Assembly: GCA_021787655.1 (NCBI GenBank)
Contig: JAJYLM010000003.1
Span: 1-35,960, forward strand
DNA length: 35,960 nucleotides
DNA from: a bacterium
Lineage (GTDB): Bacteria > JAMCPX01
Direction: 5' to 3'
Part shown: positions 22,696-27,538 of the stretch, one piece after another
Layout: every line of letters starts with the position of its first letter
Position numbering within the stretch: position 1 is the first letter of the stretch
Program-made: the position numbers and the translations under genes
The notes under the pieces: generated by a model
Databases searched by the model: none
Told to the model about the DNA's origin: nothing
The model's input: only the letters and a program-made list of their open reading frames with translations

Positions 22696-23640
22696 TTACG
22701 CCTCGAGTGCTTCCAGAACAAGGGCCGTCAACAGCGGAAACATAATTTCGTGGTGTCCTGTTATTGCATATCCATGACCCCCGGTCTTGGTCGGCCTCTT
22801 GACAACATTTTCGAGGGGCCTGTAGTGCTGGATCATGTCCATATTGATGGCTGTAAAATCTTTTATGTCATATCCGATGTTTCGCGCGATGGACAGTGCC
22901 TTCAGGAACACTTCCGGAAGAATGACGGCAGAACCGATATTGATAATGACGCCGTTCTCCAGCATCGTCACGATGGACGCAAATTTCCTGAAGTCGATCT
23001 CTGTTGCTTTTCCGATGGCAGCACCGTCAGCCTTCGGGTGCATATGGATGATGTCGGTCCCGTATGCGACGTGGACCGTGAGGGGGATGCCGAGTTTATA
23101 CGCGTTGTAGGTTATACTCATGTCCTTATGCGGGGGAGCGCTGTCGGCAAGCATCTTGCCTGCTGCTTCTCCCAGACCCATATTGTGCGCGGCGCCCGCA
23201 ATGATGGCATCGTTGAGAAGCGATCCTGTTTCCTCTGCCATACCGAAACTCCCGTCTTTGATGGTGACGGCAACGTCTTCGGATGTCTCACCGATCAGGG
23301 CGATCTCCGTGTCATGGATAACGCCGGCCCCCTGCATTGCCAGGGCGGTGATAATCTTCTTTTCCATCAATTGAATGACCAGCGGGGCAAGTCCGACCTT
23401 GATGACACTGTCTCCCATTGCAAGTATCACCTGCTTGTTGTTTTTCTTTGCGGCGGCTATCGCTGCGGCTGATGCGAGAAGTTCATCGGCTTTGAGAAAC
23501 TTCGGCAGGCTGCCCATGAATTCCTTCACCGACATTCCCGTGCGGTAGGGCAGTGCAAAATCCTGTATTTTGACCTTGTTCTTCCGTGTTTTGATTGAAC
23601 TCGTTGTTACCCGTTTCAGATCGATCGGTTCTGCTTTCAT
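22696..23640 (-). CDS. Conserved protein of unknown function, deoxyhypusine-synthase-like fold
   Basis: MGDSVIKVGL, IHDTEIAL.GETSEDV, G.FGMAEETG, TVHVAYGTDIIHMHP, GSAVILPEVFLKA, HYRP..NVV.RP, GHHEI motifs recalled from an uncharacterised DHS-like family. Confidence 0.65.
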   Translation of the reverse strand: MKAEPIDLKRVTTSSIKTRKNKVKIQDFALPYRTGMSVKEFMGSLPKFLKADELLASAAAIAAAKKNNKQVILAMGDSVIKVGLAPLVIQLMEKKIITALAMQGAGVIHDTEIALIGETSEDVAVTIKDGSFGMAEETGSLLNDAIIAGAAHNMGLGEAAGKMLADSAPPHKDMSITYNAYKLGIPLTVHVAYGTDIIHMHPKADGAAIGKATEIDFRKFASIVTMLENGVIINIGSAVILPEVFLKALSIARNIGYDIKDFTAINMDMIQHYRPLENVVKRPTKTGGHGYAITGHHEIMFPLLTALVLEALEA

Positions 23641-25308: not shown

Positions 25309-25465
25309 ACAAAGCAGGATCCTGTAACGGTGCTCAGCACCGTTCTCCGTACACCGCGCGCGCTTTTTCCCGAGGGAAATTGGTTTTTTTTGCCGGTGCG
25401 GCAATCCCGCAAACAGCAACAATAAAAAATATCGTCATCAAACGAAAAAAATATTCTTTTTCATC

Positions 25466-25495
25466 TTGACAAAACGATCTTCATCGTGGTAATTT
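25466..25495 (+). promoter_or_regulatory. Putative sigma70-type promoter
   Basis: TTGACA (25466-25471)-N18-TAATTT (25490-25495) with extended -10 TG and upstream A/T tracts. Confidence 0.6.
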
Positions 25496-25699
25496 AAAGC
25501 ACATGAAGAACTTTAATCATGCAATTAAAGGAGATGATCATCAATACTTCATGTCGTAGGAATACGTACTTTGTTGATGGTGAGCATCCGTCTGTTTCTT
25601 TCAGCGATCTGTTGTTACTTCTTACCTTTTTTCTCCTGAATAAAAAAAATATTGGATTAATGCACGCTTTCTATCAAAAAATCGGGAGGTGAAAGAATA

Positions 25700-25750
25700 A
25701 TGGCTACTAAGAAAAAAGCAAAAAAAGCAACCAAGAAAAAGAAGAAATAA
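25700..25750 (+). CDS. 16-aa lysine-rich micropeptide MATKKKAKKATKKKKK (below ORF-track cutoff)
   Basis: Near-perfect Shine-Dalgarno GGGAGGTGA (25684-25692) 7 nt before ATG; double stop TAATGA; terminator 30 nt downstream; upstream promoter. Confidence 0.7.
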   Translation: MATKKKAKKATKKKKK

Positions 25751-25781
25751 TGAATGAGTTCTGTTGTTGACTCGCTGCTTA

Positions 25782-25817
25782 GGGCTGAACCTGCTTGGAC
25801 GGGTTCAGCCCCCTTTT
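25782..25817 (+). terminator. Rho-independent terminator of the micropeptide unit
   Basis: GGGCTGAACC (25782-25791) / GGTTCAGCCC (25802-25811) perfect 10-bp stem followed by CCTTTT. Confidence 0.75.
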
Positions 25818-25937
25818 CATAGAGAACAAATTGAGCATCATCTGATAGAAAGAATATAATAAATTATCATCTCACCTGTCAATATTTTTTTGTTTTGAAC
25901 AAAAAATCCTCTATTTATAAGATAGTTGCAATAAATT

Positions 25938-26006
25938 CCTCTATAAAATAGAGGTGATCTCTTGTAATTCTAACATAACTATCTATAAAATAGATAGTTA
26001 TGTTAG
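25938..26006. repeat. Two palindromes sharing the core TCTATAAAATAGA
   Basis: CCTCTAT-AAA-ATAGAGG (25938-25954) and perfect 17-bp-arm CTAACATAACTATCTAT-AAA-ATAGATAGTTATGTTAG (25970-26006). Confidence 0.85.
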
Positions 26007-27341: not shown

Positions 27342-27538
27342 GAACCGTTTCCGGCAGCAGGCATTTTGTTCACGTTGCTCACGGACAACGTGGAGCGTAG
27401 AGCGTCATTCCTCATGGAGAAATTGTTTGCATAGTATTCCTGTTATTGCAAGAGAAAAGAAGCACCCCGGACTGTTCTTGGAATCGTTGAACTTACTGCC
27501 CCGATATGGTAAACGTCTGCATAAGCGGAGGAGGGTGT

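Follow-up and report, generated by a model that had tools for sequence, protein, structure and literature searches.

A conserved, lysine-rich 16-codon reading frame in a putative autonomous micro-gene of the bacterial lineage JAMCPX01, with similar candidates in other phyla

The stretch of DNA analyzed here (the window) comprises 35,960 nucleotides (nt) of a bacterium of the GTDB lineage JAMCPX01 (GenBank assembly GCA_021787655.1, contig JAJYLM010000003.1, positions 1 to 35,960, forward strand). The genome to which it belongs (G000) amounts to 2.02 Mb in 194 contigs, with 53% G+C and a completeness of 82.5%. In an intergenic gap of the window, downstream of a gene for a YwiC-like membrane protein (+) and upstream of genes for an outer-membrane beta-barrel protein and a COX1/DUF2871-like protein (both -), lies a micro-open reading frame (micro-ORF) of 16 codons. 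The predicted peptide, MATKKKAKKATKKKKK, contains ten lysines and no acidic residue, and is composed of K, A and T only. An earlier interpretation made from the letters alone (the sequence-only reading) had described a stand-alone transcription unit here, with promoter, Shine-Dalgarno (SD) sequence, ORF and terminator and with no + strand gene behind it. Indeed, all of these elements were found in 25466-25817, and the nearest + strand ORF downstream that reaches 150 amino acids (aa) starts only at 27506, ∼1.7 kb away and beyond two - strand genes. The elements of the unit are:

25444..25465 (+): A/T-rich tract 5' of the -35 element; AAAAAAATATTCTTTT(T/A)CATC is kept among members of the genus
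25466..25471 (+): -35 hexamer TTGACA, 6/6 consensus positions, followed by an 18-nt spacer
25487..25495 (+): extended -10 element TGgTAATTT, with TG at 25487-25488 and the hexamer TAATTT at 25490-25495
25684..25692 (+): SD sequence GGGAGGTGA, 7 nt 5' of the ATG at 25700
25700..25747 (+): micro-ORF MATKKKAKKATKKKKK, 16 codons, followed by the stops TAA (25748-50) and TGA (25751-53)
25782..25817 (+): intrinsic terminator detected by a terminator scan, hairpin 25782-25811 (12 pairs, 8 of them G-C) and T-run CCTTTTCATA

The predicted promoter would be of the sigma-70 type. The -35 region CTTGACAAA is invariant in 12/12 relatives whose sequence covers the 5' block, and the -10 position is kept in relatives as TAATTT, TATTTT, TAGTTT or TAAAAA. 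The -10 hexamer of the window matches the consensus at 3/6 positions, with a TG upstream, and the promoter was not listed by a consensus scan because of this low number of matches. The A/T-rich tract in front of it is presumably UP-element-like. The SD-core word GGAGGTGA occurs three times in the window (1.13 expected). The terminator hairpin begins 32 nt past the stop of the micro-ORF, and three terminator-like sites were counted in the 1.1-kb region, compared with 0.6 expected. The unit occupies the single bin of low G+C content in the window (0.32 vs ∼0.5).

Conservation was followed in a sample of 13 species genomes of the window's phylum. The unit, taken as 391 nt of DNA, was matched in 5/5 genomes of the genus and in 9/11 genomes of the family, and the SD sequence with the ORF was found in 9/13 genomes of the phylum, at a single locus in each. 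In one genome where the SD sequence and the ORF were unmatched (G005), the conserved promoter block sits at the end of a contig. The flanking proteins in the same loci are 47-60% (YwiC-like) and 53-70% (beta-barrel) identical. The lineage peptides are MATKKKAKKATKKKK(K), MATKKKAKKTTKKKKK, MATKKKAKKAAKKKKK, MAAKKKAKKAAKKKK and MATKKKAKKTSKKKK. No frameshift and no loss of ATG or SD sequence, events that the sequence-only reading had named as speaking against it, were seen at the matched loci: the ORF measures 15-16 codons in 12/12 lineage loci (three of which are metagenome contigs), the ATG is invariant, the position of the stop is kept, and the SD core G-GGTGA (GGAGGTGA or GGGGGTGA) lies 6-7 nt before the ATG in 9/9 genomes. 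The terminator is kept in 12/12 loci as well, at 27-33 nt from the stop, with an invariant outer stem and with compensatory changes (CG <-> UA) at the inner pairs 12:26 and 13:25. Other details of the window unit vary among relatives. The double stop is present there and is otherwise confined to G001, and the second copy of the duplicated ATKKK reads AAKKK or TSKKK in other genera.

The pattern of substitution was analyzed over 15 codons in the nine genomes with the ORF. Fifteen columns vary. Twelve of them are third codon positions, synonymous without exception, and the third base of the Lys codons varies between A and G only. Codon position 2 has no variable column, and the remaining three columns, at codon position 1, are Ala/Thr/Ser swaps at residues 3, 10 and 11. 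Synonymous-only variation, the test proposed in the sequence-only reading, holds for 12/15 columns. The non-lysine residues, A or T at positions 2, 3, 7, 10 and 11, are also kept. In contrast with the ORF, 25 of the 30 bases immediately 5' of it vary. Among the 75,772 ORFs of 8-40 aa in G000, 177 have a K+R fraction of at least 0.5, and 16 of these 177 have an SD-like word upstream. Since the frame is conserved in 9/13 genomes of the phylum, a chance ORF is excluded, and it is concluded from this comparison that the micro-ORF is a real conserved coding frame. The four differences from the window stretch that were listed for sequencing run X2 are all past 25920; run X4 has 76 differences.

A family beyond the phylum, which had been missed in the sequence-only reading, was observed when 185,579 species genomes were scanned with a 27-nt pattern for M-A-x-K-K-K-A-K-K. 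At least 120 loci were obtained, and the following figures apply to the 120 matches listed. Eighty-seven are ORFs of ≤37 aa, most of them with a GGAG-like word a few bases 5' and many with a strong hairpin past the stop. In the other 33 the pattern marks the N-terminus of a long K/A-rich protein, of an HU or presumed SWIB protein or, in a few cases, of an unrelated protein. Judged by record title, the majority of carriers belong to the Acidobacteriota/Terriglobia, and further ones to Dormibacterota, Binatia, Chloroflexota, Nitrospirota, Alpha-, Beta- and Gammaproteobacteria, 'delta proteobacteria', Bacteriovoracaceae, Verrucomicrobiia, Planctomycetota, Marinimicrobia, Brevinema, FCPU426, Saccharibacteria, Peregrinibacteria and Gracilibacteria (Patescibacteria being among the phyla) and to two archaeal bins. 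All carriers among the matches listed are metagenome bins. The type of unit in this wider family is an SD sequence and a 'MA[AT]KKK...' ORF of 11-41 codons, usually followed by a hairpin.

The acidobacterial loci copy the full plan, with a T-rich tract containing CTTGAC, a TATACA -10 element, a ∼75-nt leader with two hairpins, a GGGAG SD sequence, an ORF of 12-15 codons with a His end, and, after a ∼25-nt spacer, GGGGACGC...GCGTCCCC and a T-run. Identical acidobacterial peptides use different codons and the spacer behind the stop diverges; this comparison is an illustration and not a test, because the loci were grouped by peptide. Two acidobacterial genomes carry two such loci apiece. The peptide of two genomes of the phylum sample (G008 and G010) is also encoded at a locus titled 'candidate division FCPU426'. 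This locus has no neighbours in common with the window lineage; its hexapeptide-transferase shares only 45% identity with its best match from G000, and its dUTPase is unmatched.

Metagenomes were scanned with a 45-nt pattern spanning 15 codons, which gave 68 loci. In 57/68 the frame stops within 22 codons, and 55 stop 0-2 codons past the 15 required codons (15 aa at 25 loci, 16 aa at 28, 17 aa at 2, 22 aa at 4 and 99-105 aa at 11). Because the pattern leaves the position of the stop free, this narrow length is a real property of the loci. SD-like purine runs were present at all of them, and at least 17 unrelated kinds of flanks were distinguished by eye. How common such frames are was estimated from 401 sampled genomes. 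The exact 27-nt pattern occurred in 12/401, nine of them of the window's own phylum and three among 388 genomes of other families, the reversed pattern in 0/401, and a looser pattern in 77/401. After 70 loci had been read (30 selected automatically and 40 of 59 further places chosen by eye for in-frame Lys runs), 23 genomes turned out to encode an entire ORF of 13-41 aa that is at least half K+R and is accompanied by an SD-like word. Together with G248 and G013 this amounts to at least 25/388 genomes of other families, a minimum that depends on the search patterns. As far as the sequences go, the family is wide but patchy. Neighbouring genes are constant within lineages and differ between phyla (thiolase, AddB-like nuclease, GatB, SecA, MerR, PlsY, dUTPase, FtsY, AhpC), and no functional neighbour conserved across phyla was seen.

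The order of AAA and AAG codons was compared with within-ORF permutations for 151 distinct micro-ORFs, representing 85 distinct peptides. The mean longest A-run was 5.28, compared with 6.34 after permutation; the run was shorter than the mean of the ORF's own permutations in 115 cases and longer in 22, and A-runs of more than 9 did not occur (Wilcoxon p = 2.5e-18, a value that is overstated because the micro-ORF sequences are related). Slippage occurs on homopolymeric A during transcription or translation, and the shorter runs would fit selection against poly-A slippage, and hence expression.

Several further elements were noted beside members of the family or in proteins of similar style. At three loci titled Binatia, Chloroflexota and 'delta proteobacterium' (L027, L052 and L131), a near-identical stretch of ∼45 nt, GGTGGTTT(A/G)AACCCTCCTTACTCTCAGGCGACAAGGTAACCGTTCTGG, lies ∼30 nt past the stop and upstream of an AhpC/TSA gene; Rfam gave no match for it in L027, the one locus scanned. 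In seven metagenome loci of one flank family (L259, L263, L271, L274, L292, L296 and L320) a conserved GAGGCCTCTTCAAGGGAGCCCTC element follows the micro-ORF and precedes the terminator. In the window's genus, a gene at G002:C72:3583 onward (L212) encodes a protein with the K-rich N-terminus MAKKKAAKKKAVKKK..., continued by KRKPN(P/A)AFMKP..PRTE, a style that recurs in other phyla and is taken as that of presumed SWIB proteins.

A second micro-ORF, likewise not noticed in the sequence-only reading, is located outside the window at G000:C104:1520-1570 (-; L239/L240). It is K/T-rich (MACKTKKTKTKSTKKK), has a GGGAG SD sequence and lies 8 nt before tRNA-Asn(GTT). The form M[AV]CKTK...TKKK(K), with 16-18 aa, is retained in 9/10 loci of the family, one of which has a GTG start. 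In the metagenome contig L314 the CTTGACAAA promoter is followed by MACAKKTVKKTAKKKK and MAAKKKAKKTAKKKK in tandem, and a similar tandem, with the Cys-bearing 'MAC/MAKC' type before the 'MA[AT]KKK' type, is found in G013:C7 (L011). From this arrangement the two types look like linked paralogues.

The third feature overlooked before is a conserved AUG that opens the stretch previously described as a 200-nt leader. The leader contains the following elements:

25503..25559 (+): AUG at the predicted transcription start with an 18-codon frame, MKNFNHAIKGDDHQYFMS, stop TAG; the ATG is conserved
25511..25530 (+): 5' hairpin UUUAAU-N6-AUUAAA, present in the minimum free energy (MFE) and centroid folds and located inside the conserved 5' block
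25625..25640 (+): pyrimidine tract CCTTTTTTCTCCTGAA, which can pair with the SD sequence in the MFE and centroid folds

The first ∼50 nt of the predicted RNA are conserved at the family level and the middle of the leader is not. In 12/12 relatives with the 5' block the ATG lies 30-31 nt after the -35 element (7 nt after the -10 element), and its frame stays open for 13-20 codons (MKHFNREIKGECYHNCTV, MKVINLKIRGDNYNY and others), with [KR]G kept in 12/12. A codon-position signature was sought in every frame of the 5' block and none was seen. The AUG frame is therefore described only as a possible leaderless small ORF, its coding being unproven. A longer frame of 57 codons (25519-25692) is open throughout the genus and was rejected as a gene: it has no conserved start and no Pfam match, its amino-acid conservation is low, its frame relative to the ribosome binding site varies, and its openness was ascribed to the pyrimidine-rich composition. 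Masking of the SD sequence by the tract at 25625-25640 was likewise rejected, as pairing was only marginally better than in shuffled leaders in G000 (14/300 as good) and G004 (16/300) and no better in six other genomes. A consensus fold of the leader gave no conserved structure (-1.07 kcal/mol), and the fold of the whole RNA was weakly better than that of shuffled sequences (z = -1.74). Neither the window nor 12 related loci had an Rfam match at the gathering score, and at E<=10 only sub-threshold noise was obtained.

Sequence 3' of the terminator is not conserved among relatives. Two promoter-like sites lie just past it, a + strand site at 25831-25860 (TTGAGC-N18-TATAAT, 10/12) and a - strand site at 25882-25853 (TTGACA-N18-TATATT, 11/12), the latter of which would yield an RNA antisense to the micro-ORF. 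The same intergenic gap holds a perfect 17-bp inverted repeat, CTAACATAACTATCTAT / ATAGATAGTTATGTTAG, with a 3-nt loop (25970-26006), which could be an operator or a hairpin, and a smaller palindrome at 25938-25954. Elsewhere in the window, a 314-aa protein encoded at 22696-23640 (-) has weak, sub-cut-off matches (E ∼0.002) to deoxyhypusine synthase and to an ArgZ-like C-terminal domain, and could be a polyamine-related enzyme.

Searches of protein families, protein collections and the PDB were performed with family members of at least 20 aa, the 16-aa peptide itself being too short. NCBIfam and Pfam contained no family matching at E<=10 for eight members of 20-37 aa, and the PDB no chain matching a 21-aa member. 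In a collection of 15 billion proteins, 0/9 related members (21-41 aa) were present, which agrees with the earlier statement that such genes are invisible to standard annotation. A composition like that of histone H1 had also been pointed out. The likeness in K, A and T holds, and long proteins with the same N-terminus do match the Pfam family HC2 (PF07382), although below its cut-off: among 11 proteins of 31-117 aa, two K/A-rich ones (106 and 117 aa) reached 28.3 and 31.9 bits (E 1e-6 to 1e-7) against a cut-off of 40, and a 41-aa member scored 11.2 bits. In the ESM Atlas the 41-aa member was nearest to unnamed 'hypothetical protein' clusters (31-37 aa), followed by a cluster in which 21% of the members carry HC2 (score 0.89). 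Full-text literature searches, peptide strings included, found no description of such peptides, and in the main text of the sORFdb paper the word 'lysine' is absent.

From these data the following mechanism is proposed. A sigma-70-type promoter would start an RNA of ∼315 nt at or beside the AUG at 25503. The 16 codons, beyond a leader of ∼197 nt, would be translated from a near-perfect SD sequence, and the hairpin with its T-run would end the RNA. Methionine is usually removed before alanine, and its removal by this rule would leave a peptide of 15 residues, ten of them lysines. Being free of acidic residues, such a peptide could hardly do other than bind a polyanion. It would act through its charge, as a diffusible and genetically dosed polycation that binds nucleic acid, with the nucleoid as its most probable target. 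Our preferred reading, which we hold tentatively, is that this oligolysine peptide binds nucleic acids non-specifically in the manner of an H1 tail, mainly in the nucleoid. It is favoured because of the composition of H1/HC2 tails, because HU, SWIB and HC2-like proteins share the same N-terminus, and because lengths range from 11 aa to several hundred. Transcription, efficient translation, abundance and the binding partner are all inferred, not shown.

Several observations weigh against this interpretation. In three genomes of the phylum sample, G006 (92% complete), G011 (84%) and G012 (95%, of another class), the unit was unmatched even by the looser pattern, and the distribution is patchy, the exact motif being present in 3/388 genomes of other families and in 10/101 of one acidobacterial class. 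No RNA run was among the sequencing runs that match the locus, whereas five DNA runs do match it, and the metatranscriptome of the study of the best-matching run had 0 contigs on the window stretch. The codon test alone cannot fix the strand, because an antisense frame shares the third codon positions; the + strand was assigned because promoter, SD sequence, ATG, stop and terminator are conserved. The N-terminal likeness across phyla was imposed by the search patterns, and for a low-complexity peptide of 16 residues homology is inseparable from convergence. Moreover, the rRNA-binding proteins uS11 and uL11 also begin in this style, and a length confined to 15-16 aa in many lineages would be expected of a peptide with a defined binding site more than of a generic counter-ion.

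The strongest alternative is a ribosomal micro-protein. One copy of it would occupy a specific pocket of the rRNA, in the way known for bS22/eL41, bTHX and bL37. Its precedent is Borrelia bS22, a peptide of 30 aa with 61% K/R that was unannotated and found only by cryo-electron microscopy, in a pocket formed by 16S h2/h27/h44/h45 and 23S H68; the authors of that report expect further such unannotated cases (PMC10618245). A length held at 15-16 aa over at least 17 flank families and the strong expression signals would suit a ribosomal role, as would the position of the sister micro-ORF 8 nt before tRNA-Asn. In G000, at its completeness of 82.5%, a six-frame search with the Pfam profile PF08213 COX24_C (bS22), micro-ORF included, gave 0 matches at E<=1, and PF17070 Thx (bTHX) also gave 0 at E<=1. 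This result cuts both ways: neither protein was recognized in the genome, which would suit the rival, and the micro-ORF itself is not recognized as one, so that membership in the bTHX or bS22 families is not supported by the profiles. No ribosomal protein gene was present among 28 neighbours scanned. The patchy distribution, the range of 11-41 aa in the wider family and the two copies in each of two acidobacterial genomes also speak against a ribosomal component, and the peptide consists of K, A and T without Arg or aromatic residues, which rRNA-pocket peptides usually contain. A ribosomal micro-protein is regarded as unlikely, although it deserves to be considered.

Alternatively, the act of translation and not the peptide might matter, with the ORF serving as a sensor or regulator based on Lys-tRNA or stalling, or as a stabilizer of the RNA. 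The size of the ORF is that of a leader peptide, and the long leader has a conserved 5' block and a tract that might mask the SD sequence, although such masking is unsupported in 6/8 genomes. In the archaeal bin L080 a divergent gene for class I Lys-tRNA synthetase is located 110 nt from the micro-ORF MAAKKKAKKRKR, and in the betaproteobacterial bin L059 a micro-ORF follows a gene for Orn/DAP decarboxylase at a distance of 345 nt; each is a single case and may be a coincidence. There is no co-oriented gene to be regulated, as the terminator follows 32 nt past the stop and the next + gene lies 1.7 kb off beyond two - genes. Neighbours also differ between phyla, and the A and T residues are kept as well as the lysines. 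This explanation is considered improbable.

Slightly less probable again is a non-coding or dual-function small RNA, in which the purine-rich (AAR)n would be bound by a protein and the ORF would be only a by-product. One such protein could be Hfq, whose distal face binds ARN repeats and which is encoded in G000 (67.7 bits). In size and shape, its own terminator included, the unit resembles a small RNA, and its 3' untranslated part and outer hairpin stem are conserved in sequence. Against this stand the invariant ATG, the SD core at fixed spacing and the conserved stop, and the third bases of the Lys codons are A or G only, whereas the ARN motif would permit any base. The absence of an Rfam match in the window and 12 related loci and the lack of conserved leader structure point in the same direction. 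A gene on the other strand (antisense 25657-25734, encoding Phe/Leu-rich MVAFFAFFLVAIIL... of the type I toxin kind) would be likewise 'conserved' through its shared third codon positions and could use the 11/12 promoter-like - strand site at 25882-25853, but it is very improbable, as is a chance ORF of A-rich DNA, since the antisense frame has a TTG inside a Phe run as its only start, a pyrimidine tract in place of an SD sequence and an extension into the non-conserved leader, since promoter, SD sequence, ATG, stop and terminator all serve the + strand, and since chance is excluded by the conservation.

Returning to the charge-based reading, its generalization would be a widespread, never-annotated family of autonomous micro-genes, spread over numerous bacterial phyla and present in a few archaeal bins, encoding oligolysine peptides of 11-25 residues that act as micro-histones or polyamine-like counter-ions of nucleoid and RNA, or that form a new class of ribosomal micro-proteins below the size accessible to gene callers and tryptic proteomics, with a linked Cys-bearing sister (MAC...) that is sometimes in tandem under one promoter. 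We consider the case for this broader proposal to be evenly balanced. The micro-gene is in any case more general than it first appeared in the window, as the family spans many phyla. If the peptide is made, its gene stands for a conserved class that is too short for every gene caller and has a product that would be degraded by trypsin. If the proposed function is true, it would add a new tunable positive charge to the cell, beside polyamines, Mg2+ and basic proteins, and would bear on the neutralization of nucleoid and ribosome in phyla that have been little studied. Carriers that can be cultivated may exist among those with acidobacterial loci, yet the carriers among the matches listed are metagenome bins without exception.

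Among known systems, attenuator leader peptides (trpL, hisL) are similar in length (14-16 codons), in their bias towards one amino acid and in the terminator that follows, but the micro-ORF has no downstream gene, and its hairpin, 32 nt off the stop, is too distant for an effect of the ribosome. Polyamines are small diffusible polycations that neutralize nucleic acids, and the micro-peptide (as spermidine and spermine) would be a small polycation, although with ten lysine charges instead of +3 or +4. Unlike that of polyamines, its dose would be set by transcription and translation, because it would be made by ribosomes. HC2 proteins and the tails of HU and SWIB proteins are like the micro-peptide in their composition of K, A and T and in the N-terminus 'MA[AT]KKKAKK', but those proteins have 50-500 aa or a folded domain, and the HC2 matches are sub-cut-off and may reflect composition only. 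The ribosomal peptides bTHX and bL37 are, like the micro-peptide, basic and shorter than 30 residues, and restricted to certain lineages; bTHX differs in that its Thx profile has no match in G000. With bS22, eL41 and mS38 the micro-peptide has in common that it is very short, mostly Lys/Arg, evades annotation and is encoded by a stand-alone small gene; bS22, however, is ∼30 aa long, helical and sequence-specific, whereas the micro-peptide has 16 aa of K, A and T only and its relatives range from 11 to 41 aa. Taken together, the micro-ORFs would represent an apparently undescribed family within a known kind, the tiny polybasic peptides that bind nucleic acids.

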